In this document: positions 4,508 through 35,958 of the stretch, piece by piece
Numbering within the stretch: position 1 is the first letter of the stretch
Layout of the letters: each line of letters starts with the position of its first letter
Assembly: GCA_937897635.1 (NCBI GenBank)
Contig: CALCQI010000006.1
Coordinates: 26,552 to 90,551 of the forward strand
Source: an uncultured Peptococcaceae bacterium
Lineage (GTDB): Bacteria > Bacillota > Dehalobacteriia > UBA4068 > UBA4997
Reading direction: 5' to 3'
DNA length: 64,000 nt
The notes under the pieces: model-generated
What the model saw: only the letters and a program-made list of their open reading frames with translations
Databases searched by the model: none
Told to the model about the DNA's origin: nothing
Made by a program: the position numbers and the translations under genes

Positions 4508-4526
4508 TTGTATGTTCACCTCCGCC

Positions 4527-7354: not shown

Positions 7355-7382
7355 GTTTTTATTTTAAGGAGGTAATATTAAA

Positions 7383-7619: not shown

Positions 7620-7655
7620 AAACAAACCTAAAAAATGCTAAAGGAGGCTGTTTTT

Positions 7656-7979: not shown

Positions 7980-8024
7980 TAATACTTTAATTTTTATAAA
8001 GCTTGGTCTTTTATTTAAACAACC

Positions 8025-8052
8025 AAAAAGTGCGGTATATACCGCACTTTTT
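8025..8052. terminator. Bidirectional rho-independent terminator
   Basis: AAAAA-GTGCGGT-atat-ACCGCAC-TTTTT, lying between convergent genes. Confidence 0.8.
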
Positions 8053-8097
8053 GGCTTTTTATAGTTGTTTATATATATTATCAAAAGCTAAACGGCT

Positions 8098-8979: not shown

Positions 8980-9114
8980 ATTATTCCTCCCAGCTTTTTA
9001 TTAATTATTATTAAATAACCGTATCATCAATCATTTGAATACGTTATTGTATCCCAAACAATTATAACACAAGTTAAATTTGTTGATAAGAGGTATAGAA
9101 TAAATTTTTCAGCA

Positions 9115-9160
9115 AAACAAAAAACCGTTTCAGCATGGCTAAAAGCCCGTTGAAACGGTT
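9115..9160 (-). terminator. Terminator of the SLH-protein gene
   Basis: AACCGTTTCA...TGAAACGGTT stem followed by a T-run on the minus strand. Confidence 0.7.
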
Positions 9161-9193
9161 CTATTTTAAATTCAAACTTACCCCAAATATAAA

Positions 9194-12187
9194 CTAATAT
9201 AAACCATAAAGTATTTTGGCTATTTCCGCCCTGGTTATATTTTTCTGAGGAGCTATGCTGCCATCGCTGTAACCACCAACTATACCCAGGCTTACCAGAG
9301 TATTTATATGTTCTGCCGCCCAAGCCGGTATTTTTGCGCTATCAGTAAAATTATGCTGGGTTATGGTATAACCTTTAGCCAGGGAACGTCCTATCACCGT
9401 CATTACTTCACTTCTTACAATACTGGCTTTGGGATTAAACAAGGTTTTACCGTTCACCGTACTGCCCTGCATAATGCCCGCTTTATAAACAGCTTTCACA
9501 GCCCCCAAAGCCCAGGCCGGAATATCCACCGCATCGCTATAAGGCAATTTTACTTCCGCTTCCGTATCCAACCCCAGGTAACGTGCCATGATAACGGCAA
9601 ATTCCATGCGGCTTAAATTACGGGAAGGCGCAAATATCAAGCTGCCCGAGGCATCTGTTTCCCCTTTTATTACAGATTTTGCAGCCATAAAATCAATATA
9701 GCTTGCGGCCCAATGATTAGCCGTATCCGTAAATTGAGAGCTTGCCGAGCCGTTAACGCTGATATTTACGGATTTCCTGGCTAAATTGCCCGCCGTATCC
9801 GTAGCTTCCACGGTTATACGGTGAATACCTGCGCTTAACGTTGGTGTATAAAAACTTATATTACCCGTTAGGGCATTTGCGGTAAAGCTTGTGCTTACAC
9901 CATCCACCCAAACCTTGATATTGCTTGAAGGCAAACTGCTTGCACCTTGCTTATCCGTTATATTAACGGTAAGCTGGGCTTTGGTTTTAGCGGCTACGTT
10001 GGCAGGCACAGACGTGAATTTGATGCTAGGAGCTTCCGTATCGGCCTCGCCGCCTGTGGTAAGGTAAAGCCTATCCAAATAGATTTTACCGTTAGTGGCA
10101 GAGCCCTTTTCCAAGGCTAAACCGGTAAAATAAACCGCTCCCGAGGGGATGGCTCCGCTGATTTGCTTATAACCGCTTGCCGTAGCTTTGGCAGTAAGCT
10201 GAACGCTCATCTGTGCGCCCACCGTATTAGTAAAGTTTGCGTATATTTTGGTAGCGGCACCATCATCCAAAAACCAGGCCGATACATAGGAAGCGTTGCC
10301 TATAGACGTACTCGTATAATCAAGCGAAGTATAATCACTGCTTGTAAAATCATAAACTATCTGCAAGGCTTTATAACCATTATGCACCAAGCTGTTCGTG
10401 CTTACCAGGCTTAAGGCCGCATTGGGGGTTGCCGTAAAGCCTACCTTGCTTTCAAAATCATTTATCACAGCATCACCTAAAGCAGTGCCAAGGCTTACCG
10501 TAACCGGTATTTCCTTTGTGATACCGCCATAGCTCACCACAACAGAACCCGTACCCGCAATGCCCGAAGCCGTGAACACGCCTTCGGCAGTTATGGTACC
10601 CACATTACCTTTTACTTGCCAGCTAAAAGATTTATCGCCGGCCGCTACAGCCATATTTTTATAAGAGCCACTTGCGTTCAAATCCACCTTTTCACCCGCA
10701 CTCAGGCTCAGGCTTGAAATGGCGGAAGTACCTGATTTAACTATTATAGAGTCTATACTCTCCAAAATAAACAGCTTTTGACTACCCGTGGCATTACCAC
10801 CCGAAACATTGATGGTAGCTGTACCCGCAGTAGTGCCTGCCGTAAAAACGCTATTTGTTACCGTACCCATTTTATTATCCACAGTATAACTTACGCTTGA
10901 GGGCAAGTCCACGGGGTAATAGTTTTTATCCGTGGCTTTAAGGGCAAGGTTAACACTGCCGCCCTTCAAAACATAATAATTGGCAGGATAAACATGTAAA
11001 TTCACGGCATTGCCCACAGACCGTGTATTGTTTACCAAAACTATATAATTGGCGCATGGACGCAAACTGCCGCCCGAAGGTGTGTTCACCACTGTGGAAT
11101 CAGCGTTACCCGGCAGTTGTATAGCCATGGCAGAGGAACCTCCACCATCCAGATTGATGGCGTTCACACAGCCCAAAGCCTGCATTTCCTGTGCCAGCTG
11201 ATACGGTGTCATCCCCAAGCTGTACGGGTTGTTTTTATCCACCTCATACATGACCACTGTACCGTCCGCCTTGATGCCAACAGCACTTCTGGCATTACTG
11301 CCGCCAGGGCTATCCCCTGTATCTATCGTACCGTTTTGCAAAAGTGCCTTGCCACCCAAGGCATAAAGCACATCATTCCAACTGCCGCCCGTGGTTGAGG
11401 TAGTAAGTGTAACCTGCTCTCCTATTTTAAAATCGGGCAATCTGCCTACAGGGCCGCTATCCGACACTGTAAGCACCATTTGGTTTTCCGCAATTGGGGT
11501 AGAGCTTGAAGTTTTTACTATATCCACAACTTGAAGGTTCAAGCTGCCATTTACGGTAACAGGGTCATCGGTGAGCCTTTCCAAAACTATATTGGTGCCT
11601 GCACTTGTAAGCCTGGTTTCCTTGCTGAAATTAGTATCCAACAAAAAAATAGAGCTGAGAGAACGCACTTTATTGAAGCAATCTACCGTAACCTTGCCGC
11701 TTGCACCGTTTATGGTCATGGTGGTTACAGGTTTACCCATAACAGCACTGCCATCTGCTTTGAAACCAACGGCATAATAACCAAGGTTAGAGCTAATGAG
11801 CTCACCGTCTTTTATAACTATACCTATGGGCAAGCCGTTTTTCATATCAAAAAAATCACCGTTGATTGCGGCAATAACTTCCTTACCCAGGCCTTCCACA
11901 TAATTAGCAACAGCAGTAATGGTAGACTTGCCGTAAAGCTTGCTTCCGTAAACTACCATGGGGCTTATATCCGCATTGGGGGTATACTCCACATAGTTTA
12001 CCTGAGCCGCTCCCACAGTAGTTTGGCCCGTACCGTTATAATAGGTAGTTGAATTACCAATCTCACGGCTGTTTATATAGGCCTCGCTTAAGGCCATGGC
12101 AGGTGAAGTACCGGCCATTATCAAAACCAAAGCCGCCGCAGTAGCTTTAAGCACAAAGGCAGACTTTTTACTTTTAAATATTTTCAT
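9194..12187 (-). CDS. Secreted S-layer-homology (SLH) anchored protein with a phosphodiester glycosidase (NAGPA-like) domain and Ig-like repeats
   Basis: Signal peptide MKIFKSKKSAFVLKATAAALVLIMAG. NGDFFD...AINLDGGGSS block. Three C-terminal SLH repeats (FTDTANHWAASYIDF..., LPYSDAVDIPAWA..., FTDSAKIPAWAAEHI...). Confidence 0.85.
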   Translation of the reverse strand: MKIFKSKKSAFVLKATAAALVLIMAGTSPAMALSEAYINSREIGNSTTYYNGTGQTTVGAAQVNYVEYTPNADISPMVVYGSKLYGKSTITAVANYVEGLGKEVIAAINGDFFDMKNGLPIGIVIKDGELISSNLGYYAVGFKADGSAVMGKPVTTMTINGASGKVTVDCFNKVRSLSSIFLLDTNFSKETRLTSAGTNIVLERLTDDPVTVNGSLNLQVVDIVKTSSSTPIAENQMVLTVSDSGPVGRLPDFKIGEQVTLTTSTTGGSWNDVLYALGGKALLQNGTIDTGDSPGGSNARSAVGIKADGTVVMYEVDKNNPYSLGMTPYQLAQEMQALGCVNAINLDGGGSSAMAIQLPGNADSTVVNTPSGGSLRPCANYIVLVNNTRSVGNAVNLHVYPANYYVLKGGSVNLALKATDKNYYPVDLPSSVSYTVDNKMGTVTNSVFTAGTTAGTATINVSGGNATGSQKLFILESIDSIIVKSGTSAISSLSLSAGEKVDLNASGSYKNMAVAAGDKSFSWQVKGNVGTITAEGVFTASGIAGTGSVVVSYGGITKEIPVTVSLGTALGDAVINDFESKVGFTATPNAALSLVSTNSLVHNGYKALQIVYDFTSSDYTSLDYTSTSIGNASYVSAWFLDDGAATKIYANFTNTVGAQMSVQLTAKATASGYKQISGAIPSGAVYFTGLALEKGSATNGKIYLDRLYLTTGGEADTEAPSIKFTSVPANVAAKTKAQLTVNITDKQGASSLPSSNIKVWVDGVSTSFTANALTGNISFYTPTLSAGIHRITVEATDTAGNLARKSVNISVNGSASSQFTDTANHWAASYIDFMAAKSVIKGETDASGSLIFAPSRNLSRMEFAVIMARYLGLDTEAEVKLPYSDAVDIPAWALGAVKAVYKAGIMQGSTVNGKTLFNPKASIVRSEVMTVIGRSLAKGYTITQHNFTDSAKIPAWAAEHINTLVSLGIVGGYSDGSIAPQKNITRAEIAKILYGLY

Positions 12188-19650: not shown

Positions 19651-21135
19651 TTATTCAACCCAGTTTTGCGCGCGCTTTACTGCTTTATGCCAATTTTGTA
19701 ATAAGGCTTGCCTTTCCTGCTGCGGCATTTTAGGCGTAAAGGCAGCATCCAGGTGCCATTTTTCCTCCAGCTCCGCCTTATTTTGCCAAAATCCTGTAGC
19801 AAGCCCCGCCAAATAAGCTGCTCCCAAAGCCGTAGTTTCTTGAACTACAGGGCGTTTTAAACTCAAACCCGAAATATCCGCCTGAAAAGCCATCAATAAA
19901 TCATTGGTGCTGGCACCGCCATCCACCCGCAATTCCTTGATAGGTATTTGATTATCTTTATTCATGGCACAAAGAACATCCTCGGTTTGATAAGCTATGC
20001 TTTCCAAGGCCGCCCTTACCAAATGGCTGCGGTTGGCGCCGCGTGTAAGACCAAATATTGATCCCCTGGCATACATATCCCAATAAGGTGCGCCCATGCC
20101 TGTAAAAGCAGGCACTATGTAAACCCCGCCATTATCCTTTGCTTTAGCGGCTACCGCCTCGCTTTCAGCGGAATTTTTTAAAAGCCCTAATTCATCACGC
20201 AGCCATTGGATAACCGCTCCGCCCACGAAAACACTGCCCTCCAAAGCATAACTGATTTTGCCTTCGGCACTTATGCCTATTGTAGTTAAAAGCCCATTTT
20301 TGCTTACAGGCATGTTTTTGCCGCTGTTAGCCAGTAAAAAACAGCCCGTACCGTAAGTATTTTTGGCCTTGCCTTCCTCAAAACAGCACTGCCCGAATAA
20401 AGCACCCTGCTGATCCCCCACCAGGGATGCTATAGGCACCTGCCTGCCCGCTATATTGCAGTAACCATAGATTTCATCGCTGAAATGCACCTGCGGTAAC
20501 ATACTTTGGGGTATATCCAGCTTTGCCAGGATCTTTTCATCCCAGCACAAATTTTTAATATTGAACATCATGGTACGGGAAGCATTCGTATAGTCCGTAA
20601 CGTGAACTGCTCCATCCGTAAGCTTCCATAACAACCAGGTATCCACCGTACCGAAAAGCAATTCACCGTTTTCGGCCTTTTTTCTGGCTCCTTTTACATT
20701 ATCAAGTATCCATTTCACTTTGGTTGCGCTGAAATAAGCATCAACGGGCAAGCCCGTATTTTCTTTTATATAAGGAGCAAGGCCGCGTTCTATCAATTCA
20801 TCACACATTGGCGCGGTACGGCGGCACTGCCAAACAATAGCATTATGAACGGGGTTGCCTGTAGCCTTCTCCCACACTATGGTAGTTTCCCGCTGGTTGG
20901 TTATACCTATGCCTGCTATTTCCGTAGGCTCGATACCGCTTTGAGCTATAGCTTCCATTAACACAGCGTATTGGCTGGCATAAATATCCATAGGGTCATG
21001 CTCCACATAGCCTGCCTTAGGATAATACTGCTTAAATTCCTTTTGGGCTTTGGCAATAACACGCTGAGAATGATCAAAAATAATGGCTCGGGAACTGGTA
21101 GTTCCCTGGTCAAGCGCAATTATATATTTTTTCAC
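19651..21135 (-). CDS. glpK: Glycerol kinase
   Basis: [14 protein letters not shown]... and [13 protein letters not shown] motifs over the full length. GTG start with a GGAGG RBS. Confidence 0.95.
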
Positions 21136-21464
21136 GCCTTTTACCTCCCCACTGTTGGTAGAACTATTGATAGCCTAATTTTAGCACATAAAGCCTTAAA
21201 GCAAAAGCGGCAGCTTTCAAATGCTTAAAATCTCTTTTAGCAAAACCCAAACCCATAAAATTTTACTCATCTTTAGCAAAAACACATAAGGAAACCTTAT
21301 AGACATAGTAGACAATTTATATAAAATTACCCAACATTCCCCCGCCTTCCCATAAATATTATTTATAGATACATATTATATTTATAATAGAAGAAACTCA
21401 TCATTATAAAAATTTTCAGAACAATCTTTCAAAAAAACTAAGCCCTAGCAGGCATTTTAGTAAA

Positions 21465-21493
21465 TTGACGCTAAAAAAAATAAGGTCTATACT
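21465..21493 (+). promoter_or_regulatory. Sigma-A-type promoter of the corrinoid/molybdopterin operon
   Basis: TTGACG (21465-21470), 17 nt, TATACT (21488-21493). Confidence 0.55.
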
Positions 21494-21561
21494 GTAAATA
21501 TACCTAATACGACAAAAAACTGCAATTTATTATAATACTACCAAAAAATGAGGTTATTATT

Positions 21562-22710
21562 ATGTTAAATTTACCGGAAAACTTTCAAAATTATACGGAA
21601 GCCCGTAAAAACGGCTTTATTAAAATGAAAGAATTAAAAGAAACAGGCAAAAAAGTGGTAGGTGTTTTTTGTACCTATACACCCAATGAACTGGTAATGG
21701 CCGCAAATGCCGTTCCCATAGGTTTGTGCGGCGTAAGCGAAGAACCTGTAACTGATGCGGAAAGAGTACTGCCCAAAAACCTTTGCCCACTTATAAAGTC
21801 CAGCTATGGTTTTGCCTTAACTGATAAATGCCCTTATTTCTATTTTTCGGATATGATTTTGGCAGAAACTACCTGCGATGGTAAAAAGAAAATGTACGAG
21901 CTTTTGAATGAGCTTAAATATACCCATGTAATGCAGCTTCCCCCGGGCAGAGAAGGCACCAAAGCCCTAGAAGCTTGGGAAGGCGAAATGCATCGCTTAA
22001 AAGACGTTTTGGAAGAACGCCTTAATGTTGAAATAACTGAAACGAAGCTTAAAGAGGCAATAAAATTAAAAAACAGGGAACGTAAAGCTATGTTGGATTT
22101 CTTTGAAATAGGCAAGCTCAAACCTTCCCCTCTTTCAGGCTATGAAATAAGCACGGTTATAGATACCAATAGCTTTATTTTCTCTTCCCAAGAAAAAATA
22201 GCAATGCTGGAAAAACGCACAAAAGAATTAAAACAAGCCTATGAACAAAGCTTTAAGGGTAAACCCAGCCGTCCCCGTATTTTGATTACGGGCTGTCCCA
22301 GCGGCGGTGTAAGGGAAAAAATCATCCGTCAAATAGAAGAAGCGGGTGCAGATATTGTTTGCTTTGAAAATTGCTGCGGCCCCAGGGAAAAAATGGATAA
22401 AGTAGATGAAACTATAGAACCTTACCGTGCCTTGGCGGAAAAATACCTGCGGGTGAACTGCTCGGTAATGAGCCCCAATCCGGGACGTTTTGAAACCTTA
22501 ACAAAAATGATACAGGATTATCAAGTAGATGGTGTCATCGAAATCATTTTACAGGCCTGCCACACCTTTGCGGTAGAAGCATATAAAATAAAGCAATTCA
22601 TCACTCAAGAACAAAAACTACCCTATATGTGCCTGGAAACCGACTACTCCCAAGCTGACAGCGGTCAAATAAATACACGCATCAGCGCTTTTTTGGAAAT
22701 GCTTGCTTAA
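21562..22710 (+). CDS. 2-hydroxyacyl-CoA dehydratase (HgdB/BcrC/BadD) superfamily protein, YjiM / double-cubane-cluster-protein-like
   Basis: 382 aa. N-terminus [54 protein letters not shown]. Many conserved-looking Cys ([23 protein letters not shown]). Confidence 0.65.
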
Positions 22711-22920
22711 AATTTAACATACTTTTATACCACTGTAAGGCCTCAGTATTATATATAAACCATCCCCCATTTATTTTTTCAAGCCTTTTTATGGATAAAA
22801 TCATTCTTACAAAAAAACAATTTATTTGGTTTGTTTACTTTCCTTACGTTGCTTGTTTAAATTTTTACGGTACTTTAAGGTTCGGTATTATACTTTTAAT
22901 AAATATTATATACAAAGCAG

Positions 22921-23580
22921 GTGATAATCATTAACAGCTTATATACACAAATAGTAGATTCTATTATAACTCTTGATGAAGAAAAAACCGAACAATTGGT
23001 TGCAAAAGCTCTGCAAAACAATCATGCACCTATGAATATAATGAACGAAGCCTTAGTTGCCGGCATTGATGCAGTTGGTGAAAAATTCAAATCCAACGAA
23101 TATTTCATACCTGAACTTGTGTGCGGTGTAAAAGCCTTTCAAAAAGGCTTAACACTCATCAAACCCTTAATCACAAATAAAACTGACTGTTTTTTGGGTA
23201 CAGCTGTCATAGGTACAGTTAAAGGGGACATGCATGATATAGGCAAAAACATTGTAGCCATAATGCTGGAAGCAGCAGGTTTTCAAGTTTTCGATTTGGG
23301 CGCGGACGTTTCTGCTCAAGCCTTTGCGGATGCTGCGGAAGCTTATCAGGCTGACATTATAGCTCTTTCTGCATTGCTTACCTCAACAATGGTTTATATG
23401 CCCGAAATTTTAAACAAGCTTGAAGAACGCGGCTTAAGAAGCAGTGTTAAGGTAATGGTAGGAGGAGCGGTAATAAACCAAGCCTTTGCCGACCGTATAG
23501 GAGCCGACGGTTACTCTAAAGACGCAACCGAAGCAGTAATTCTGGCCAAAAACTTATTAAACAAGAAAAGGCCATCTTAA
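22921..23580 (+). CDS. Corrinoid (cobalamin-binding) methyl-carrier protein, MtaC/MtbC/MttC type
   Basis: N-terminal helical cap. B12-binding Rossmann with GDMHDIGKNIV (DxHxxG), LSALLTS (SxL) and MVGGA (GG). The start codon is uncertain: GTG 22921 has a weak RBS. Confidence 0.85.
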   Translation: MIIINSLYTQIVDSIITLDEEKTEQLVAKALQNNHAPMNIMNEALVAGIDAVGEKFKSNEYFIPELVCGVKAFQKGLTLIKPLITNKTDCFLGTAVIGTVKGDMHDIGKNIVAIMLEAAGFQVFDLGADVSAQAFADAAEAYQADIIALSALLTSTMVYMPEILNKLEERGLRSSVKVMVGGAVINQAFADRIGADGYSKDATEAVILAKNLLNKKRPS

Positions 23581-23581
23581 A

Positions 23582-25558
23582 ATGCAGGAAAAAAAACTTA
23601 TCTGCGGGCTTTGCGCCTGTAATTGTATATTAAAAGCGATAATAAATGAAGATGGTTCAGTAAAAGAAGTAAAAGGAGACCCCGAAAGTATTACAGGAGG
23701 ATTTGCCTGCAGCAAGGGCAGAGCTTTAACCAAAATACCTAAAGCTAAAAACCGTATCACTGAAGCATTAGTTAAACAAAAGGACGGCAGCTTTAAGTCT
23801 GTAACTATGCTTGAAGCACTTGAACTTTTAGCGCAGAAAATGCTTGCTATTAAGCAAGATTTTGGGGCTTCAGCTTTTGCTATCCACAGCGGCCAAGCTG
23901 CCGTACGCAGACAATTTTCCCGTCTAACGGGCTATTTTAGCCACCTTTACGGTTCTGTCAATTATTCGGGTATTGGTACTACCTGTAATGTATCTAAACG
24001 CATTGCTTACACAATGACTATGGGCGGTTTGCCCAAATGCGATTACCTCAATGCCAAAACAATTGTATTGTGGGGTCATAATGCTCCCAATACCCACCCC
24101 TATGATTGGCAGGTAATAAAAAATTGCTGTGCAAACGGTGCTAAACTCATTATCATAAATCCTCAAAAAACCGAGGCCTGTCGTGAAGGATGCTTACACC
24201 TTGCCTTAAAACCGGGCACCGATATTTACCTGGCCTGGGCCATCCTAAAAATTGCCGCACAACAAAAATGGTTCACTGAACAAAATATAGCAGCTACCTC
24301 AGGTTTTGAAGCGTTGGTAAGCTCCTTAAAAAATCTTGATACCGCGGAAATGCTTGATCACTGCGGTTTAACTTTACCAGAAGTAAATAAGGTAACAAAA
24401 CTTATTTTTCAAGCTACTCCTACTACTATTATGGCCGGAACAGCCATAGAACTGCAACAACATGGTTTTCAAACTGCACGAGCCATAGCCATTATACAAG
24501 CTATGTGTGGAACCAAGGCTCTTCTGTTCCCCAAAATGCCGCCTGCCTATGCACCTTTCCCTGTAAAATCAAGCTTTAATGGTGAAATGGTAGGCGCAAC
24601 CGAATATCCTGTTTTTACGGATTTTGTGGGATATGCCCAAAGCAATATTTTATCTAAAAGTATCAATGAAGGTAAAATCAAAGGCATTCTTATTGTTGGC
24701 GGTAATCCACTTGCTACCTGGGCCAACAGCTCCGTCAATCAAAGAAGCTTTGCTAAACTGGATTTTATGGCAGTCATGGATAATTTTCTTACCATAACAG
24801 CCAAAGCAGCCGATTTGATTATTCCCGCTGCCTGTCCTACTGAAAAATACGAGCTTTTGGAGTGTATTTCAAGCACAGGAGAGGTTTACCTTAACCTTTC
24901 GGAAGCTGTTTTACCTGCCAAAGGCTTAAATGAAGTTGAGTTTTTCAAAGCTATGGCTGATCTTCTGGGTTTTGGCGAAGCCATGCCCTGGCAAAATTCA
25001 CTTACTTATTTTGATTATCTGCTAAAGCCATTGAAGCTGAACTGTCAAAGCTTGCTCCAAAACAGCAATGGTTTCCATTATGCCGCAAACCGCAAGTTAC
25101 AGGATATACAAAAAGAAAATACTAGCATCAATTTAACAGTCCCCAAGCTTGCAGAATATGGTTATTCTACTTTACCGCTGCCACCCGTATATGAAAAACC
25201 TGCTGCGGATCAAATAATTTTAACTACCTGTGATAAAAGCAGGAACTTGGTTCATTCCCGCTACCGTAATGTAAAGGAACTTGTTAAAAACGAGGAACCT
25301 ACACTTAAGCTAAACCCCAACACTGCTTCTTCTTACCAAATAATAACAGGGGATACGGTACAAATAAAACGTGGAGAACACACTTTGCTTGCCAAAGCGC
25401 TGGTTACCGAAAATATTACCGAGGGCACTGCAGCCATAATGCACGGTTGGGCAAACTGTAACGTAAACTATTTTACCCGCTTGGAAGAATTGGATGCCAT
25501 AAGCGGCTTCCCAAATTCAGCCGCAATACCGATAAGCCTTAAAAAATATGGGGGTTAA
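23582..25558 (+). CDS. Cytoplasmic molybdopterin (bis-MGD, DMSO-reductase superfamily) oxidoreductase of unknown substrate
   Basis: N-terminal CGLCACNC...FACSKG ([4Fe-4S] C-x2-C-x3-C...C). No twin-arginine leader. Central MopB domain. C-terminal barrel (ITGDTVQIKRGEHTLLAKALVTENI...). The ATG is 1 nt after the corrinoid gene stop. Confidence 0.8.
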   Translation: MQEKKLICGLCACNCILKAIINEDGSVKEVKGDPESITGGFACSKGRALTKIPKAKNRITEALVKQKDGSFKSVTMLEALELLAQKMLAIKQDFGASAFAIHSGQAAVRRQFSRLTGYFSHLYGSVNYSGIGTTCNVSKRIAYTMTMGGLPKCDYLNAKTIVLWGHNAPNTHPYDWQVIKNCCANGAKLIIINPQKTEACREGCLHLALKPGTDIYLAWAILKIAAQQKWFTEQNIAATSGFEALVSSLKNLDTAEMLDHCGLTLPEVNKVTKLIFQATPTTIMAGTAIELQQHGFQTARAIAIIQAMCGTKALLFPKMPPAYAPFPVKSSFNGEMVGATEYPVFTDFVGYAQSNILSKSINEGKIKGILIVGGNPLATWANSSVNQRSFAKLDFMAVMDNFLTITAKAADLIIPAACPTEKYELLECISSTGEVYLNLSEAVLPAKGLNEVEFFKAMADLLGFGEAMPWQNSLTYFDYLLKPLKLNCQSLLQNSNGFHYAANRKLQDIQKENTSINLTVPKLAEYGYSTLPLPPVYEKPAADQIILTTCDKSRNLVHSRYRNVKELVKNEEPTLKLNPNTASSYQIITGDTVQIKRGEHTLLAKALVTENITEGTAAIMHGWANCNVNYFTRLEELDAISGFPNSAAIPISLKKYGG

Positions 25559-25562
25559 AAAT

Positions 25563-26597
25563 ATGTCTGAATTAAGCAAACGCGAAAAAATATTTCTAAC
25601 TTTATCAAGAAAGCAAACGGGCTATATACCTGTTATACCTTCCGCTACCAGCTTTGCTATTACCAATTCGCCTTATGGAGCTGAATGCCGCAAGGATAGC
25701 CAAAAATTTGCAGAAGCAATGGTTTCCGCCAGGCGCTACTTCGGTTATGATGCTCTTTGGGCAGGCTTGTTCCAGGGAGTTACTTCCTGCATGGGGCAAG
25801 GACTTGAAGATAAAAATGGTAAAATCTCGCAAAGCGGCGATGGTACCATCCAAAAACCTGAGGATCTGAAAAAACTGCGTCCTTTTAATATAGAAAAATG
25901 TGTTCAACTGCATTTCATTAAGGAAAATATCCGCTTACTAAAACAAGAAGAACCTGAAGAACCCATAATAGCCATTATGGACAACCCCTCTATGGTAGCA
26001 TCGGCACTGATGGATGGTGGTAATTATTATTATCATCTTGTACATAATCCCGCTTTTGTGCATGAGCTTACCGAAATGGTTTTTGAACCCTTGACGCTCT
26101 GCGCGCAAGAAATTATTGCGGCAGGTGCGGATATTTTATGGCTGCCTTTACCAACCATAGGCGGAACCTGCATTTCCAGGCAGCATTATCAGGAATTCTG
26201 TATGCCTTACAATAAACGCTTTAACCAAAAAATCATCCAAGCGGGCGGCAAACTCATCATTCATACCTGTGGAAACTGGAATGATCGCTTCGACCTTGTA
26301 ACTACAGAGGGCGCGCATTGCCTGCATATTGCCGAAGCAGATTTAGGCATGCTCAAAAAAACCTACGGCAACACTACCGCCTTAATGGGTCAAATACCGT
26401 CTGTGTTTACCATGATGTTGGCCGATCCCAAACAGGTATTTGCCCAAAGCCTTGCCGATTGTCTTGCCGCTGCAGAAGGCGGCGGCTTTATCCTAAGCCC
26501 CGATTGCGGTATGCCAGGCAAAACTCCCGCCGAAAACATAAAAGCCATGGTTGCGGCTGCCAAGGAAGCTGAACGCATTTTAGCGGGCAAATGCTAA
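25563..26597 (+). CDS. MtaA/MtbA/MtsA-like Zn methyltransferase (uroporphyrinogen-decarboxylase fold)
   Basis: URO-D-like length and layout. Candidate Zn ligands IIHTCGNW (HxC) and LSPDCGMP. ATG 25563 lies 4 nt after the MopB stop, with GGGGG upstream. Confidence 0.75.
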   Translation: MSELSKREKIFLTLSRKQTGYIPVIPSATSFAITNSPYGAECRKDSQKFAEAMVSARRYFGYDALWAGLFQGVTSCMGQGLEDKNGKISQSGDGTIQKPEDLKKLRPFNIEKCVQLHFIKENIRLLKQEEPEEPIIAIMDNPSMVASALMDGGNYYYHLVHNPAFVHELTEMVFEPLTLCAQEIIAAGADILWLPLPTIGGTCISRQHYQEFCMPYNKRFNQKIIQAGGKLIIHTCGNWNDRFDLVTTEGAHCLHIAEADLGMLKKTYGNTTALMGQIPSVFTMMLADPKQVFAQSLADCLAAAEGGGFILSPDCGMPGKTPAENIKAMVAAAKEAERILAGKC

Positions 26598-26631
26598 AAT
26601 TAATTATATATTGGAGGGTTAATAAAAAACA

Positions 26632-27468
26632 ATGAATGAAAATTTGGCTGAGAAAGCCGTAAAACTATCCTTACAAAACATCTCCCATTCTTATACCGAT
26701 ACCTCAGGCCAAAGCATGGAGGCCATCAATAATATAAGCCTAAATATAAAAGATGGCGAATTTGTAGCTATAGTAGGCTCCAGCGGCTGTGGCAAAAGCA
26801 CACTTTTAAATATCATGTGCGGCATTTTGGAACCAAGCCAGGGGAGTGTTTTGCTGGACGGGCATGCCTTAAGAAATGCTAAAAGCAAGATTGGCTATAT
26901 TTCCCAAATGGATACTCTTTTACCATGGCGCAGAGTCATCAAAAATGTAGCTTTAGGCCTAGAAATAGAAGGCAAATCAAAAAAAGAGCGCCTGCAAATT
27001 GCCAAAGAACTTATAGAAACCAGCGGTTTGAGCGGCTTTGAGGATAAATACCCCTTTGAACTTTCGGGCGGCATGCGCAAACGTGTTATCATCATCCGCG
27101 CTCTTGCCCAAAATCCCGATGTGATTTTTATGGATGAACCATTCGGCCCTTTAGATATTTTTACCAAAACCATGCTTCAACAGGAAATTTTGAAGATTTG
27201 GTCTGAACATAAAAACACTATCATCTACATAACACACGATATTGCCGAAGCCATAGTACTGGCAGATCGTATCATCCTGCTCAGCTACCGCCCTGCCACC
27301 ATCAAAGCCGAATATAAAGTAGAACTGCCACGGCCTCGTATCATAGAAGAATGTAAATACAACCCCTACTTTTTAGAGCTGGAAAAAGAAATTTGGGACA
27401 CAATTAAAGAAGATGTGAAGATTGCACAGCAGGAGGAGTTTTACAATAATGCTAAAAAAAATATTTAA
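26632..27468 (+). CDS. ABC transporter ATP-binding protein (NitT/TauT: nitrate/sulfonate/taurine type)
   Basis: GSSGCGKST Walker A, LSGGMRKRVIIIRAL signature, IFMDEPFGPLD Walker B. Confidence 0.85.
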   Translation: MNENLAEKAVKLSLQNISHSYTDTSGQSMEAINNISLNIKDGEFVAIVGSSGCGKSTLLNIMCGILEPSQGSVLLDGHALRNAKSKIGYISQMDTLLPWRRVIKNVALGLEIEGKSKKERLQIAKELIETSGLSGFEDKYPFELSGGMRKRVIIIRALAQNPDVIFMDEPFGPLDIFTKTMLQQEILKIWSEHKNTIIYITHDIAEAIVLADRIILLSYRPATIKAEYKVELPRPRIIEECKYNPYFLELEKEIWDTIKEDVKIAQQEEFYNNAKKNI

Positions 27469-28228
27469 ATCAAAACTACTGCCCCAATTTTACCTTATTT
27501 TGTTTTTAGTTATTTTCTTTGGGATATGGCAGTTTTTTGTAAATATAGGTTCCATAAACCCGTTTTTATTCAGCAGCCCTATAGATATATTCAAGGACAT
27601 GTTTAACTTATTTGCTACAGGCGAAATCTGGCCACATATTTTTGTTACGCTTTATGCCTCCTTTTGGGGTGTTGTTATAGGCACTGTAAGCGGTATTATA
27701 GTTGCCTTTATTTTGGGCAATATAAAAATTTTGGCAGATATTTTCGACCCCCTTTTTGTGGGGCTTTACGGATTACCCAAACTAGCTTTGGGGCCTCTTT
27801 TCATAGTTTGGTTCGGCATCAGCATTACCGCCAAAATATTCATGTCTACCATTATGGTATTTTTCCTTGTTTTCTTTAACGCTTATGCCGGTTTCCGCAA
27901 TGTAGATGTAAACCTGATAAATATGATGAAGCTGATGGGAGCAAACCGTCTGCAGATTATCACCAAGCTTACTTTACCTTCCTGCATACCCTGGATAACG
28001 GCCAGCTTAAGAGCAGGTGTGGGTGCGGCTGTATTGGGCACCATTGTTGGGGAATATTTGGGTGCAGTACAGGGTTTGGGCTGGATGGTAATGACAGCCG
28101 GCGGTGTTTATAACATAACTAGGGTACTTTCCTGTATTTTTATTCTGATGATACTAATGTCACTGCTTGATTTTTCAGTAAAAAAAGCAGAAGCAATTAT
28201 TTTAAAATGGCGGCCTGCCGTTGATTAA
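27449..28228 (+). CDS. ABC transporter permease (SsuC/TauC-like)
   Basis: Six TM-like segments with an EAA-type loop (MKLMGANRLQIITKLTLPSCIPWI). ATG 27449 follows AGGAGGAG and overlaps the end of the ATPase gene. Confidence 0.8.
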   Translation: MLKKIFKSKLLPQFYLILFLVIFFGIWQFFVNIGSINPFLFSSPIDIFKDMFNLFATGEIWPHIFVTLYASFWGVVIGTVSGIIVAFILGNIKILADIFDPLFVGLYGLPKLALGPLFIVWFGISITAKIFMSTIMVFFLVFFNAYAGFRNVDVNLINMMKLMGANRLQIITKLTLPSCIPWITASLRAGVGAAVLGTIVGEYLGAVQGLGWMVMTAGGVYNITRVLSCIFILMILMSLLDFSVKKAEAIILKWRPAVD

Positions 28229-28291
28229 ACCTGCTTAAAAGAAGCATGCTTCTTTTAAATAAAACTAAAAACAAAAAAGGAGAGAAACAAT

Positions 28292-29347
28292 TTGAAGAAG
28301 GTATGTTTTGCATTAAAAAAGTTTGTCCTATTCGCATTAACAGTAACAATGATTTTTGCTTTAGCCGCCTGCGATAATGCAAATTCAAACCCCGGGCAAG
28401 AAGAGGATAACCAAAAACAAGTAACCGAGCTTACTAAAATAACAGTAAGCGAACCTGTAAGAAGTGAATTGTGGGGTCCCGTTTATTTAGCAAAAACCTT
28501 AGGCTATTTCGAAGCAGAAGGTTTGGATGTTGAATTTGTAACAGTTCAAGGAGATATGCCCACCGCTCCCGTATTATCAGGCAACTCTCAATTCGGTCTC
28601 TATGGCCCTGAAATGATTTTAAAATTTAAGCAACAGGGTCAAGATGTGAAATTACTGCTCACAGTAAGCGACCGTTACCCATATTCCTTTGTTACCACCA
28701 AGGATATAACCTCTATCGAACAGCTTAAATCACAAGTAGTGAACGGCGCAGACAGCGGTTCCTCTCCTCGTGCTTTTGTTCGCAGTATCGTAAATTCAGC
28801 AGGCCTGAACCCAGATACCGATGTTACCTATGTAAACATCAACGGCGCTGCCAGCATTGCCGCCTTGGAAAGTGGTGATATAAAAGGCACCTATGTTTCT
28901 CCTACCGCTCGTGCCATTGCTTTGCAATCGGGCTACAACCTTTTGGTAGATATTTATGACCCCAAAGTCCATAAACAACTGCTTGGTTCCGAAAGCTATG
29001 AAATGTACATAGTTTTTGCCACTGAAAAGTATATATCCGAAAATCCCGAAGTAGCACAAGGATTCAGCAATGCCGTTTATAAGGCTTTGCTTTGGGCAGA
29101 TTCCCACAGTGCAGATGAAATAGTGGAAGCAATGAAACCCCTATTCACCAATTCTGAAACCTTACCTACGGCCATCAAAGAAATCAAAGAAAATGATATA
29201 TGGTCTGTAACAGGTCAATTCTCTGATGAAGGCTTTGCTGCCATCAACCGTGTTGCAACTGCTTCAGGCCTCATCAACAGCGATGTTGACCGTGCAGATG
29301 TTATTGCCGAAGATTTTATGAACAACTCTCACAAAAACATTAAATAA
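28292..29347 (+). CDS. Lipoprotein substrate-binding protein (NMT1/THI5-SsuA/TauA-like)
   Basis: TTG start behind AAGGAGAG. Lipobox FALAAC. Periplasmic-binding fold of the size and pattern of sulfonate/nitrate-family SBPs. Confidence 0.7.
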   Translation: MKKVCFALKKFVLFALTVTMIFALAACDNANSNPGQEEDNQKQVTELTKITVSEPVRSELWGPVYLAKTLGYFEAEGLDVEFVTVQGDMPTAPVLSGNSQFGLYGPEMILKFKQQGQDVKLLLTVSDRYPYSFVTTKDITSIEQLKSQVVNGADSGSSPRAFVRSIVNSAGLNPDTDVTYVNINGAASIAALESGDIKGTYVSPTARAIALQSGYNLLVDIYDPKVHKQLLGSESYEMYIVFATEKYISENPEVAQGFSNAVYKALLWADSHSADEIVEAMKPLFTNSETLPTAIKEIKENDIWSVTGQFSDEGFAAINRVATASGLINSDVDRADVIAEDFMNNSHKNIK

Positions 29348-29375
29348 TTCCCCAGTACTCCTCTTTAATAACGCT

Positions 29376-29423
29376 GACCGTTACTTATAAGACCCCATAA
29401 GTAACGGTCCTTTTATTTATTTT
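29376..29423 (+). terminator. Operon terminator
   Basis: 13-bp perfect stem GACCGTTACTTAT/ATAAGTAACGGTC followed by a T-rich tail. Confidence 0.85.
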
Positions 29424-33523: not shown

Positions 33524-33616
33524 TATGTATATTGTTTTTGGCGGATAGAGGCATTTTGGTATACAGCCAAGGTGTCTTTTCAAATTTTAAATTCCCAATT
33601 TAAAGGAGGCTCCACC

Positions 33617-35710
33617 ATGGAAAAAATCGATGTGCCGAAAATTTTTGGAGAAAATGTTTTTAATGAAACTATCATGCAGCAGCAACTGCCACAGGAAATA
33701 TACCAATCCATGAAAAATGCTATTGATAATGGGCTTCCCCTGGAACCTGAAGTAGCGGAAGTAGTAGCCTACGCCATGAAGGAATGGGCTATTGAAAAAG
33801 GCGCCACTCATTATACCCATTGGTTTCAGCCCATGACAGGTATAACAGCCGAAAAACATGATGCCTTCATAACACCATCTTTAAACGGCAAGGTGTTAAT
33901 GGAGTTTTCGGGCAAGGAATTGATCAAGGGTGAACCCGACGCTTCCTCCTTTCCTTCGGGCGGCCTGCGCAACACCTTTGAAGCGCGCGGCTATACCGCC
34001 TGGGACCCCACCTCCTATGCTTTCATTAAGGATGCTGCCCTTTACATACCTACCGCTTTTTGTTCCTACAGCGGTGAAGTTTTGGATAAAAAAACCCCGC
34101 TTTTACGCTCTATGCAGGTAATAAGCCGTGAAGCCTTAAGAATAACCAAGCTTTTCGGCAATCAGGCCACTCATATTATCACAACCGTTGGCGCTGAACA
34201 GGAATATTTTTTGGTAGACCGCGAGCTTTTCAAACAGCGTAAGGATCTTTTGATAACAGGCCGCACCCTGTTCGGAGCCAAGCCTCCCAAGGGCCAGGAA
34301 ATGGACGATCATTATTTCCGCAATTTAACAGAACGGGTTTCGGCTTTTATGCATGAATTGGATAAAGAATTATGGAAAATGGGCATCTTGGCCAAAACCA
34401 AGCACAGTGAAGCGGCACCCGCTCAATTTGAGCTTGCCCCCATTTTTACCACTACCAATATTTCCACCGACCATAATCAGCTCACCATGGAGCTAATGAA
34501 AAAAATAGCCAAACATCATGGCTTGATTTGCCTTTTACATGAAAAACCTTTTGAAGGTGTGAACGGTTCGGGCAAGCACAATAACTGGTCTTTATCCACC
34601 AATTTGGGTGAAAATTTACTAAAACCGGGTAAAGATCCCGCCAATAAACCGCAGTTTTTACTTTTCTTCACCGCTGTTATAGAAGCCGTGAGCCGCTACG
34701 GAGATATGCTGCGCGCTTCTACCGCCATGGCCAGCAATGATCATCGCTTGGGTGCTAGCGAAGCACCTCCCGCCATTGTTTCCATGTTTATAGGCAATGA
34801 TCTTTTAGGCATATTGGAAAGTATTGAACGCGGCGAAAAGGGCCTTAAAACCGAACGCCAGGAATTGTATATAGGTGTAGCCACCATACCTGCTTTACAT
34901 AAGGATTCCACCGACCGCAACCGTACCTCCCCCATGGCTTTTACAGGTAACAAATTCGAATTTAGAATGCTGGGCAGCTCGGCCTCCATTGCCGATACTA
35001 ATATAGTTATCAATACCGCGGTGGCAAGTGTTCTGAAAAAATATGCCGACCGTTTGGAAAAAGCTGAAAACTTTGATGCAGAAGTTATGTCTATTATAGC
35101 TGAAACTATAGCCGCTCATAAACATATTATTTTTAATGGCAATAACTATACAAAAGAATGGTTAGCGGAAGCCGAAAAACGCGGCTTACCCAATTTAAAA
35201 AGCTCTGTGGATGCTATTCCCGCTTATATAGACCCCAAAAACCTGGAGCTTTTTTCATCACAGGGTATCTTCACCAATGCGGAACTGCATTCCCGTTATG
35301 AAATAATGCTGGAAACCTACACTAAAACCATCCATATCGAAGCACAAACCATGATTAACATGGTAAACCGCCAGATTCTACCCGCGGTCATCGATTACAG
35401 CAAAAACTTGTTTGAGGCTCTGTATGCCAAAAAAGTATCGGAACTCAGTTTGGATCTAAGCCGTGAAGAAGCAAGAGCCGCTCATCTTAACGAGTTGACC
35501 GAAAGCCTGATCACACTTTTGGAAGCTTTGGCAAATACCCTTACAAAAGCAAAAGCTATAACCGAGCCCTTGGCTTTAGCCCGTTTTTACCATGATACCG
35601 TGCTTAATGCTATGAACAGCTTAAGAAAAACCGCAGACGAGCTGGAAACCCTGGTAGCAGACAGCTATTGGCCTTTCCCCACTTACCTGGAACTGCTCTT
35701 TAATATTTAA
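33617..35710 (+). CDS. glnN: Type III glutamine synthetase
   Basis: About 697 aa with GSIII-type N-terminus MEKIDVPKIFGENVFNE... and catalytic-core motifs (NGSGKHNNWS, HRLGASEAPPA). ATG 33617 behind AAAGGAGG. Confidence 0.85.
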   Translation: MEKIDVPKIFGENVFNETIMQQQLPQEIYQSMKNAIDNGLPLEPEVAEVVAYAMKEWAIEKGATHYTHWFQPMTGITAEKHDAFITPSLNGKVLMEFSGKELIKGEPDASSFPSGGLRNTFEARGYTAWDPTSYAFIKDAALYIPTAFCSYSGEVLDKKTPLLRSMQVISREALRITKLFGNQATHIITTVGAEQEYFLVDRELFKQRKDLLITGRTLFGAKPPKGQEMDDHYFRNLTERVSAFMHELDKELWKMGILAKTKHSEAAPAQFELAPIFTTTNISTDHNQLTMELMKKIAKHHGLICLLHEKPFEGVNGSGKHNNWSLSTNLGENLLKPGKDPANKPQFLLFFTAVIEAVSRYGDMLRASTAMASNDHRLGASEAPPAIVSMFIGNDLLGILESIERGEKGLKTERQELYIGVATIPALHKDSTDRNRTSPMAFTGNKFEFRMLGSSASIADTNIVINTAVASVLKKYADRLEKAENFDAEVMSIIAETIAAHKHIIFNGNNYTKEWLAEAEKRGLPNLKSSVDAIPAYIDPKNLELFSSQGIFTNAELHSRYEIMLETYTKTIHIEAQTMINMVNRQILPAVIDYSKNLFEALYAKKVSELSLDLSREEARAAHLNELTESLITLLEALANTLTKAKAITEPLALARFYHDTVLNAMNSLRKTADELETLVADSYWPFPTYLELLFNI

Positions 35711-35723
35711 TAGCTTTGATAAC

Positions 35724-35754
35724 AAAAAAAGCCGTCGCATAGCGACGGCTTTTA
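35724..35754. terminator. Bidirectional terminator (glnN on +, candidate sRNA on -)
   Basis: A7-GCCGTCGC-ata-GCGACGGC-TTTT. Confidence 0.85.
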
Positions 35755-35925
35755 TGATCTATAACGCTTATGGTTTGGAAAAGAGCACAAGCGCTTTAAT
35801 GGGTCTAACCCATAAATCCCGCTGTATCTCCTTTCCAAAAGGGAGGTTTAGCAGTTTCCCGCTAAGCCCATCGGCTTTATGCCTTTTTGGTAGGCATATA
35901 AGCTCGGAGATTATTAATATTATAT
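35724..35925 (-). ncRNA. Candidate stand-alone small RNA (~200 nt), class unknown
   Basis: Bounded by a perfect TTGACA-17-TACAAT promoter and a U7 terminator on the minus strand. It has no credible ORF. Several local hairpins are present, including UUAGCGG-GAAA-CUGCUAA (35848-35865). Confidence 0.55.
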
Positions 35926-35929
35926 TATT

Positions 35930-35958
35930 ATTGTAGCATTTGCCAAACTCAATGTCAA
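35930..35958 (-). promoter_or_regulatory. Consensus sigma-A promoter driving the candidate sRNA
   Basis: Minus strand: TTGACA (35958-35953), 17 nt, TACAAT (35935-35930). It starts 2 nt after the upstream gene's stop. Confidence 0.65.

Follow-up and report, generated by a model that had tools for sequence, protein, structure and literature searches.

We identified, in a 64,000-nucleotide stretch of DNA from an uncultured Peptococcaceae bacterium (contig CALCQI010000006.1, positions 26,552 to 90,551; hereafter the window), an operon in which a molybdenum- or tungsten-dependent enzyme of the MopB superfamily is coupled to a corrinoid methyl-transfer module and an ABC importer. The operon is a real, conserved and undescribed variation on the demethylation modules that are built from a corrinoid protein (Corr) and an MtaA/MtsA-like zinc methyltransferase (Mlp). 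It has seven genes, of which six rather than all seven form the conserved unit, because the first gene, for a double-cubane cluster protein (DCCP), is missing from the orthologous clusters of other lineages. We tentatively propose that the six-gene unit is a pathway for the uptake and demethylation of an exogenous, oxidised, methylated sulfur or selenium compound, and we favour sulfur or selenium over arsenic in the substrate. The operon and its signals comprise the following features, all on the plus strand.

21465..21493, plus strand: sigma-70-like promoter candidate, TTGACG-17-TATACT, 5' of the DCCP gene; 10 of 12 positions match
21562..22710, plus strand: double-cubane [8Fe-9S] cluster protein (DCCP, YjiM-type), 382 aa; NF040772 526 bits against a cutoff of 350, Pfam HGD-D 386
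22711..22920, plus strand: 210-nt AT-rich stretch that separates the DCCP gene from the corrinoid gene; contains weak promoter-like sites (22724-22752, 22864-22891)
22921..23580, plus strand: corrinoid (B12-binding) methyl-carrier protein, 219 aa; Pfam B12-binding_2 60.8 bits and B12-binding 99.3 bits
23582..25558, plus strand: predicted cytoplasmic Mo/W-bis-PGD (pyranopterin guanine dinucleotide) enzyme (MopB), 658 aa, from an acetylene-hydratase-like family; all three Pfam domains of MopBs pass their cutoffs
25563..26597 (alternative start 25548), plus strand: MtaA/MtsA-like Zn methyltransferase (Mlp, UroD superfamily), 344 aa; Pfam URO-D 145 bits
26632..27468, plus strand: ABC transporter ATPase, NitT/TauT family; TauB 217, NtrCD 210 and SaoA 208 bits, about equal and all below cutoff
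27449..28228 (alternative TTG start 27422), plus strand: ABC permease; Pfam BPD_transp_1, with SsuC 114 and SaoP 103 bits, both below cutoff
28292..29347, plus strand: lipoprotein substrate-binding protein (SBP), NMT1/SsuA family; Pfam NMT1 90 bits, SsuA_fam 59 against a cutoff of 163
29376..29420 (hairpin 29376-29409), plus strand: intrinsic terminator, 13-bp stem followed by a U tract; -17.9 kcal/mol, z = -4.3

An earlier reading of this DNA from its letters alone (the sequence-only reading) had described seven genes, bounded by a promoter and a strong terminator and packed tightly enough to suggest a single pathway. The seven plus-strand open reading frames (ORFs) are present at the coordinates it gave, and profile scans with Pfam and NCBIfam agree with each assignment. 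Its tight junctions were also borne out on reading the DNA: the corrinoid stop and the MopB start form TAAaATG with a 1-nt gap, the second in-frame ATG of the Mlp gene lies 4 nt past the MopB stop (the first would create an 11-nt overlap with the MopB gene), and the ATPase and permease genes overlap. Mlp orthologues called in three related loci (L015, L016 and L001; L-numbers are labels of the related loci and contigs compared with the window operon) begin 4 nt past the MopB stop. The terminator is indeed strong, with 0 of 200 shuffles folding as well. The promoter sequence is present, but such sites are common in the region (39 found against 24.6 expected), so that taken alone it is weak, suggestive evidence. 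No terminator was listed by the signal scan in the 210-nt spacer after the DCCP gene, which is a possible internal start for the six-gene core. The leader contains no riboswitch match in Rfam at E <= 1 (window 21100-23000), and in L001 the gap upstream of the operon is a tmRNA gene.

The order Corr-MopB-Mlp-ATPase-permease-SBP is kept, at 55-75% identity and with junctions of 1-19 nt, in every close lineage with enough contig, namely L001-3 (a Bacillota metagenome-assembled genome, MAG), L004 and the window lineage (L013-17 and L098-99); in the fragment L100, Corr and MopB are seen side by side. The flanks of the operon are unrelated, with tmRNA/SmpB in L001-3, rpsT in L004 and GlpK/DCCP in the window. 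Recurrence of the MopB-corrinoid-MtaA adjacency, which the sequence-only reading had named as a check on its proposal, was thus found among close lineages with differing flanks. In L014 (11981-12139), MopB and Mlp seem at first to be set apart by an extra 170 bp, which was discounted as a run of Ns, an assembly gap; L014 is MAG GCA_002398485.1, with about 159 Ns and an 11-bp junction repeat, and its called Mlp gene is shifted by 170 bp. At 55-59% identity to the window MopB there are only three other 90%-identity clusters. A metagenome scan added just two near-identical contigs and one 59% fragment, and among the matches listed from a genome-contig scan there was no further clade member above 32% identity. 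An exhaustive HMMER search over 1.84 billion representatives left the MopB alone in its 50% cluster, with the next representative 33-34% identical; the wider family counts at least 265 representatives.

The corrinoid protein carries the motifs by which methyltransferase-cognate corrinoid proteins are recognised, DMHDIG (DxHxxG) at residue 103 and SAL (SxL) at residue 150. Among solved structures it is closest to 1y80 and the MttC/MtmC corrinoid proteins, and its TIGR02370 score falls slightly short (187 against a cutoff of 215). In the Mlp, HTC at 239-241 (H239, C241) and DCG at C320 align with the Zn ligands (HxC...C) of MtaA 4ay7, which is the sole PDB sequence match of the protein. NCBIfam subfamily cutoffs are not reached (TIGR01463, 121 against 235; NF004889, 139 against 244), and by sequence the Mlp is placed in a divergent clade of the MtaA/CmuA family of the UroD superfamily. 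Mlp has many more relatives than MopB does.

The closest of these relatives come from modules without MopB. In L111 (7577-12333), the Mlp and Corr are 70% and 68% identical to those of the window, nearer than the orthologues that accompany a MopB, and the gene order is MetH-like protein, Corr, Mlp and major facilitator superfamily (MFS) transporter. The MetH-like protein combines homocysteine S-methyltransferase and methyl-tetrahydrofolate (methyl-THF):corrinoid domains, with no B12 domain (NF005719, 284 against a cutoff of 259). The L111 cluster resembles MtpC-MtpA-MtpP and looks like a split methionine synthase that is fed by an external methyl-thio donor. Upstream of it lie genes for a glycyl-radical enzyme, its activase and a DASS transporter. 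A second module, L114, consists of a MetNIQ-type importer, Corr, two Mlps, two MetQ-like SBPs and DCCP. A third, L116, has an NMT1-type ABC importer (ATPase 61%, permease 58% and SBP 38% identical to those of the window) with Mlp and Corr. Since Corr, Mlp and an importer are found together without MopB, we regard importer, Corr and Mlp as a mobile core and MopB as an insertion or add-on specific to the window clade. The core is predicted to act on imported compounds of the methyl-S or methyl-Se type.

Given these relationships, the Mlp, rather than MopB, is by analogy the probable substrate:corrinoid (substrate-specific) methyltransferase, or MT1. The precedent is MtpA of Methanosarcina acetivorans, an MtaA-family, substrate-specific MT1 that cannot carry out the second transfer (10.1101/548461); it supports Mlp as MT1, with an acceptor methyltransferase and an activase that are encoded elsewhere. 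The sequence-only reading had instead placed MopB in the MT1 slot and listed MT1, a second methyltransferase (MT2) and a RamA-type activator as missing. MtpA and L111, in which the closest Corr-Mlp pair stands without MopB beside a MetH-like methyltransferase, speak against that placement. MT2 and the activator are absent from the operon, as had been claimed, and MT1, in the form of Mlp, is not missing. As to the substrate, Kountz & Balskus argued for demethylation of methyl-Se and methyl-S compounds from the His-Cys-Cys Zn site, the neighbouring genes, the genetics of sdm in M. voltae and a ClMlp2 selenide assay (PMC10418091). The same site in the window Mlp supports an S- or Se-methyl substrate.

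The direction of methyl transfer could in principle be the opposite, with MopB reducing selenite, tellurite or arsenate and Mlp methylating the product from methyl-corrinoid for detoxification or volatilisation. Characterised MtaA and MtbA do run from methyl-corrinoid to a thiol (MtaA methylates coenzyme M, CoM), ClMlp2 was assayed in that direction with selenide (PMC10418091), and the operon has no other MT1. A dedicated high-affinity importer with a lipoprotein SBP speaks for acquisition and not for detoxification, the operon offers no methyl-donor methyltransferase with which the corrinoid could be charged, and the closest Corr-Mlp pair is accompanied by an importer and a MetH-like acceptor enzyme. 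We therefore consider methylation by this operon very improbable and retain demethylation as the direction.

The MopB protein scores above cutoff for the Molybdopterin, Molydop_binding and Fe4S4 domains of Pfam (93.7, 48.8 and 25.0 bits). Its FS0 motif, C-x2-C-x3-C-x27-C, is formed by C8, C11, C15 and C43, which, like K45 and C135, do not vary among 13 family members; the metal ligand, C135, aligns with Sec140 of FdhH and Cys141 of acetylene hydratase. The FS0 motif stands at the very start of the protein, so that an export signal is lacking. An AlphaFold (AF2) model (pLDDT 93.2, pTM 0.93) has a four-domain fold, with TM-scores of 0.82-0.89 to solved MopBs. On these motifs and this model, MopB is a credible Mo/W-bis-PGD enzyme that looks to be in working order. 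In a family-profile search, acetylene hydratase was the best match (425 bits, full length), followed by FdhF (348) and PsrA (339). Foldseek comparison of the model gave acetylene hydratase (TM 0.88, root-mean-square deviation 3.5), PsrA (0.89, 3.8) and ArrA (0.85, 4.1), the sequence match to ArrA being poor (E 1e-5 with a single-sequence query). These structures would put MopB nearest to the part of the superfamily that handles sulfur, selenium and arsenic. No named family was reached, PhsA included (155 against a cutoff of 694).

An identity as acetylene hydratase itself was rejected. The catalytic Asp13 is missing: CQSCDINC of 2e7z aligns with CGLCACNC, and the equivalent position is Ala in the window MopB and Ala, Gly or Asn across the family. 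It may nevertheless be asked whether MopB is a non-redox enzyme, as the sequence-only reading had also considered, and one that hydrates, hydrolyses or cleaves the imported compound and so exposes a methylthio or methylseleno group for Mlp, FS0 then being structural or electrostatic only. Acetylene hydratase leads by fold as well as by family profile (425 against 348 bits for the next), the predicted monomeric cytoplasmic architecture is shared with it, and no close-clade operon encodes an electron-donor subunit. Loss of the Asp13 equivalent across the family argues against such chemistry. In L010, the gene of a more distant family member shows translational coupling to genes for a Fer4 protein and a flavoprotein, and for that branch at least a redox function is implied. 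Dedicated partner genes are likewise lacking for monomeric MopBs that depend on ferredoxin, NarB and NasC among them. On balance we judge a non-redox MopB unlikely, and continue with MopB as a predicted reductase.

By its best matches, TauB, NtrCD, SsuC and SsuA_fam, the importer looks to be of the NitT/TauT type (TC 3.A.1.16/17); the family level is plain, but every one of these matches is under its equivalog cutoff and they single out no particular specificity. The ATPase is 75% identical to those of L001 and L004. The SBP has Cys only at positions 5 and 27, with none beyond the lipobox, and no match to SaoX or NrtA in the NCBIfam scan. Its nearest solved relatives (3qsl, ThiY and SsuA) are all distant, and assignment of a ligand from solved homologues was dropped for this reason. 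We also rejected membership of the transporter in the selenocysteine-assisted organometallic (SAO) system, as SaoA (208 against 360) and SaoP (103 against 295) are below cutoff and SaoX and SaoB have no match. The position of the SaoP selenocysteine gate is Gly in the window permease, and the mature SBP has no Cys and no CU or CC motif (U, selenocysteine). The Gly gate and the Cys-free SBP favour an oxyanion or polar substrate over a thiol-bound (soft) metal.

Taken together, the MopB and importer results bear on whether two unrelated units merely abut here, a nitrate reductase (Nas) or formate dehydrogenase (Fdh) with an Nrt-like transporter standing by chance beside a corrinoid methyltransferase pair. 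The sequence-only reading had named close grouping of MopB with assimilatory nitrate reductase or formate dehydrogenase, and of the transporter with NrtABC, as grounds for abandoning its proposal. The top NCBIfam names of MopB are Fdh-alpha and NasC, and the ATPase matches ntrCD. These scores are far below cutoff, at 185 against 666 for formate dehydrogenase alpha (TIGR01591), 167 against 1100 and over the N-terminal half only for NasC/NarB, and 210 against 292 for NtrCD. MopB has Cys-Asn at the metal ligand in place of the Sec/Cys-His of Fdh, and the Arg-bearing RGQ motif of Fdh (RGQNNVQG) was not seen in the aligned region; the SBP is not NrtA-like. Neither grouping is therefore found. Chance abutment is exceedingly improbable and effectively refuted, because the MopB gene is interleaved between the corrinoid and Mlp genes, with junctions of 1-19 nt, in every close lineage.

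Beyond the window clade, the nearest relatives of MopB (32-35% identity) sit in SAO loci or beside the MerB-like lyase SaoL. In Pelotomaculum propionicicum (L018, 4202-12034), MopB follows saoE-saoC-saoX-saoB-saoP-saoA-saoD, with all sao genes above NCBIfam cutoffs and a DCCP gene upstream. In L005/6 (L005 2486-12790), a full SAO locus that includes DCCP has MopB flanked by saoD and saoL, and its saoB, saoP and saoL genes are broken by in-frame UGA at the expected CU or U sites. L012 contains DCCP, MopB, saoB, saoA and saoP, and L110 (356-6124) contains an NMT1-type ABC transporter, MopB and saoL. The preprint on SAO (10.1101/2022.07.06.499078) mentions molybdenum only with regard to Se-dependent hydroxylases and lists no molybdoenzyme as an SAO component, and a 2026 review adds nothing on a molybdoenzyme in SAO. 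The link between the acetylene-hydratase-like MopB clade and SAO, unremarked in the preprint, is new here. A Proteiniborus-type MopB (L007) is found inside a cystine (Tcy)-like ABC operon. Such wiring of other family members to importers of S/Se type (L007, and SAO in L005, L012 and L018) supports a sulfur or selenium substrate.

Other, more distant relatives are encoded directly downstream of corrinoid methyltransferase genes of the non-Pyl MttB superfamily or of MtmB-like type, in Chloroflexi, Spirochaetes and one unassigned metagenome lineage. The arrangements are RACo-corrinoid-MttB-MopB in Caldilinea (L085, 4295-12124), MttB-MopB in L090, L064 and L066 (about 7000-12100), MtmB-like-MttB-MopB in L019 (1-4973) and MtmB-like-corrinoid-151 aa-MopB in L103-107 (L103 7053-12172), where the 151-aa protein is kept and has no family match assigned. 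In a rough neighbour-joining tree the methyltransferase-linked MopBs are polyphyletic, which indicates that the pairing of MopB with corrinoid methyltransferases arose repeatedly. We speculate, with low confidence, that this MopB family marks a general strategy for oxidised organo-chalcogens and organo-metalloids, in which the compound would be reduced before a carbon-heteroatom bond is cut. MopB would then feed either a corrinoid demethylase, as in the window and in the MttB- and MtmB-linked relatives, or SaoL, as in SAO loci.

The SAO relatives also raise the prospect of an organo-metalloid substrate. Methylarsonate, dimethylarsinate or a methyl-antimony or -tellurium oxyanion would be imported, brought to the trivalent state by MopB and demethylated by Mlp and the corrinoid protein, as an anaerobic counterpart of the C-As lyase and in parallel to MopB with SaoL in SAO loci. 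The nearest MopB relatives, in or beside SAO loci (L018; saoD-MopB-saoL in L005; ABC-MopB-saoL in L110), are consistent with this, as are the structural match to ArrA, weak Phosphonate-bd matches in orthologous SBPs and an ArsP_1-family permease 15 kb upstream in the window. The literature, moreover, leaves anaerobic arsenic demethylation open, with corrinoid methyltransferases suspected. Yet the transporter lacks the Cys/Sec features of SAO, having a Gly gate and an SBP without Cys, and no ars genes are found in or beside the operon in any lineage. The relatives of Mlp occur with importers of methionine type and with a MetH-like enzyme, ArrA is matched poorly by sequence (see above), and the upstream ArsP_1 and ArsS-like genes are below cutoffs and unlinked to the operon. 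An organo-metalloid substrate is thus improbable in our estimate.

For an oxidised methyl-sulfur or methyl-selenium compound, the following course can be envisaged. The NitT/TauT-type ABC system would import the compound, probably an oxyanion or a polar neutral molecule and not a soft metal, since the SBP lacks thiol ligands. Cytoplasmic, Cys-ligated MopB would then carry out a two-electron reduction, either deoxygenation of an S- or Se-oxide or cleavage of a chalcogen-chalcogen bond, to give a methyl thioether, methyl selenoether, or methyl thiol (selenol). The Mlp, with its Zn(His-Cys-Cys) site, would move the methyl group to the Co(I) corrinoid, freeing a thiol or selenol. An acceptor methyltransferase would finally take the methyl group off the corrinoid and an activase would keep the cobalt reduced, both being encoded elsewhere; a MetH-like homocysteine/THF methyltransferase of the kind beside the L111 pair would fit as acceptor. 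DCCP may serve as an optional low-potential reductase from the same selenium/sulfur-linked toolkit. Reduction by MopB followed by demethylation through the MtsA/MtaA-like enzyme was one of the hypotheses of the sequence-only reading, and we keep it as the best of the readings considered, with confidence somewhat short of even. The analysis establishes the gene content, the motifs, the tight coupling, the conservation of the unit, the modular nature of the core of Corr, Mlp and transporter, and the place of MopB in its superfamily; the order of the steps, MopB as a redox enzyme, an S/Se-oxide as the substrate and the fate of the methyl group are what we infer.

Several observations weigh against this proposal. 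A redox function of MopB is an assumption, because no gene of the operon codes for an electron-transfer partner of MopB and acetylene hydratase, its nearest relative of solved structure, does no redox chemistry. The nearest solved relatives of the SBP give no pointer to the substrate. There is no sign of selenium use in the window, where SelD is absent, the sole tRNA is for Thr and genes with in-frame UGA were not seen in the operon; tRNA-Sec was dropped as a selenium marker on account of that single tRNA. No oxide substrate is obvious for the non-Pyl MttB proteins beside related MopBs, and deoxygenation as a first step may not generalise. The clade is tiny, with four to five lineages, so conservation statistics are thin, and we infer co-transcription from gene spacing alone. 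Lastly, within the 64 kb we found no acceptor methyltransferase of the pterin-binding or MtrH type, no RamA/RACo and no ATPase of the DCCP-reductase type, as judged from Pfam scans of real-looking ORFs of at least 150 aa and from precomputed Pfam labels of the near-identical contigs L013/L014.

The lack of RamA/RACo in the operon and the rest of the window could suggest that MopB, with or without DCCP, replaces these proteins as reductive activator of the corrinoid; there is an Fe-S cluster in MopB, and DCCP is of very low potential. The closest Corr-Mlp clusters without MopB also have no activase nearby, so that it is encoded elsewhere in those cases, L085 carries both RACo and a related MopB, and DCCP is missing from orthologous operons. 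We know of no MopB that acts as a corrinoid reductase. Activation by MopB is accordingly a most doubtful role, and reduction of the imported compound is the one we assign to it provisionally.

DCCP belongs to its family with confidence, the equivalog cutoff of NF040772 being passed and Cys 37, 56, 75, 105, 271/272, 300 and 333 standing in DCCP-like spacing; the seven-Cys spacing departs by 1-5 residues from the motif printed in the preprint (10.1101/2022.07.06.499078). The gene is not in the orthologous clusters L001-L004 and is present only in the window lineage, making DCCP a lineage-specific accessory outside the conserved core. It is 52-54% identical to the DCCPs beside the SAO locus of L005 and beside the Mlp cluster of L114 (52%). 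Its cognate ATP-dependent reductase (DCCP-R, BcrAD_BadFG) is absent from the window and present beside DCCP in L116. There, DCCP, a PF11823 Se_S_carrier protein and DCCP-R form a compact triad (L116 16565-18887) 5 kb from the ABC-Mlp-corrinoid module, a further link of DCCP to Se/S trafficking. According to Haft & Gwadz, DCCP is hardly ever found without SelD, which accompanies it in 955 of 970 cases, and it also co-occurs with SAO (10.1101/2022.07.06.499078). The suggestion in the sequence-only reading that DCCP supplies electrons to reactivate the corrinoid is weak, given the absence of DCCP from orthologous clusters, and is further weakened by these published statistics, which tie DCCP to selenium use.

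Elsewhere in the window, four genes at 6335-8979 encode an ArsP_1-family permease, a small thioredoxin-like protein, an AhpD/CMD-like protein and an ArsS-like DUF3641 protein. The permease, about 15 kb upstream of the operon, is SaoE-like (110 bits against a cutoff of 325). The ArsS-like protein (197 against 300) shows no radical-SAM CxxxCxxC in the N-terminal region read from the DNA and is possibly degenerate. We rejected the ArsP_1, ArsS-like and XdhC-like genes as parts of the system, as they are below family cutoffs, 8-15 kb off and on mixed strands, and their adjacency to the operon is not kept in other lineages. On the minus strand, positions 1412-5033 encode a 1047-aa fusion of NuoE-like 2Fe-2S, NuoF-like FMN/4Fe-4S and GltD-like Fer4_20/Pyr_redox_2 modules. 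A further NuoE-like gene stands next to it, and the fusion probably belongs to a hydrogenase/Fdh-type module that is electron-bifurcating or NADPH-linked.

Downstream of the operon, we identified an orphan riboswitch for the Mo/W cofactor (Moco; RF01055, 63.7 bits) at 35921-35812, within an element at 35722-35953 on the minus strand. The riboswitch comes with a promoter of its own, TTGACA-17-TACAAT, and is directly followed by an intrinsic terminator. No ORF follows it on the minus strand, and it runs head-on into the 3' end of a type III glutamine synthetase gene (33572-35710, plus strand). The element may be a stand-alone Moco-sensing small RNA or, upon read-through, an antisense regulator.

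In existing descriptions, corrinoid systems comprise two methyltransferases, a carrier and an activase; a coupled Mo/W enzyme would add an undescribed step of substrate preparation and would broaden the methylated compounds open to anaerobic demethylation. If the general strategy speculated on above, reduction before cleavage of a carbon-heteroatom bond, is correct, the operon would be the first genetic handle on the anaerobic route from methylated Se or As oxyanions (methaneseleninate, dimethyl selenoxide (DMSeO), methylarsonate or dimethylarsinate) to inorganic Se or As, or alternatively a handle on the long-sought substrate class of the SAO system and DCCP. As the MopB family is found beside SAO and DCCP, reductive oxo-transfer would narrow the candidates to species with an oxo group or a chalcogen-chalcogen bond. 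The operon bears on anaerobic salvage of Se and S from methylated oxidised forms and on O2-free demethylation of methylated arsenic. It also lends itself to experiment: there are six genes, the enzymes are soluble, and ligands can be screened on the lipoprotein SBP.

The sequence-only reading had stated that it knew of no characterised system of this composition. In agreement with this, in the literature searched we found no publication on a MopB coupled to a corrinoid methyltransferase or on an operon so composed. That reading had overlooked two published frameworks, the mlp clusters (PMC10418091) and SAO/DCCP (10.1101/2022.07.06.499078), and these provide comparisons. A type 1 mlp cluster is defined by two or more Mlps with a corrinoid protein plus a Ram protein, co-directional and within 2 kb (PMC10418091). 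The window cluster falls outside this definition, as it has one Mlp and no Ram/RACo in the 64 kb; no THF methylase lies within 20 kb, in line with a further type 1 criterion (ORFs of at least 150 aa and L013/L014 labels). Like the type 1 clusters and SdmABC of Methanococcus voltae, it combines a His-Cys-Cys MtaA-like enzyme with a corrinoid protein in an anaerobe, and it shares with the type 1 clusters DCCP as a frequent neighbour and a proposed demethylation of methyl-S or methyl-Se. It differs in having a MopB and an SsuABC-like importer, neither a molybdoenzyme nor such an importer being mentioned in PMC10418091, and the named clostridial Mlps are not among the close homologues of the window Mlp.

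The MtsA/MtsB and MtpA/MtpC/MtpP methylthiol systems of Methanosarcina (10.1101/548461) are similar in having a small corrinoid protein, a single MtaA-family MT1 and a dedicated transporter, and the Corr-Mlp-MFS layout of MopB-less L111 is like that of the Mtp system. The window system, in contrast, is bacterial, has no CoM, uses an ABC importer instead of an MFS transporter and has the gene for a Mo/W enzyme inserted; its Mlp is about 25-30% identical to MtaA, below family cutoffs. The SAO system (saoTECXLBPAD) resembles the window operon in its NitT/TauT-type importer, its associated DCCP and a step that removes carbon from a heteroatom, carried out by SaoL in SAO and, as we propose, by Corr and Mlp here. 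No window protein reaches a Sao cutoff, Sec, CU and CC are lacking, and SaoL, SaoE, SaoC, SaoD and SaoT are absent.

Among molybdoenzymes, acetylene hydratase (2e7z), PsrA and ArrA share with the modelled MopB the four-domain bis-PGD fold, the FS0 [4Fe-4S] cluster and a Cys ligand, and acetylene hydratase also shares the cytoplasmic monomer architecture. Identity in the structural alignments is about 18%, Asp13 is lacking and Asn follows the ligand Cys; compared with PsrA and ArrA, the window MopB has no twin-arginine (TAT) signal and no PsrB/ArrB-type partner. The cytoplasmic or periplasmic S-/N-oxide reductases BisC, DmsA, TorA and MtsZ belong to a different, Ser-ligated subfamily, in which BisC, Tor and Dor lack FS0, and their sequence matches to the window MopB are much weaker, the bisC_fam score for example being 86 against 1018. 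With these enzymes there is a functional analogy only: they are MopBs that deoxygenate methyl sulfoxides and N-oxides, including free methionine sulfoxide, and the window MopB may do likewise with an imported S- or Se-oxide.

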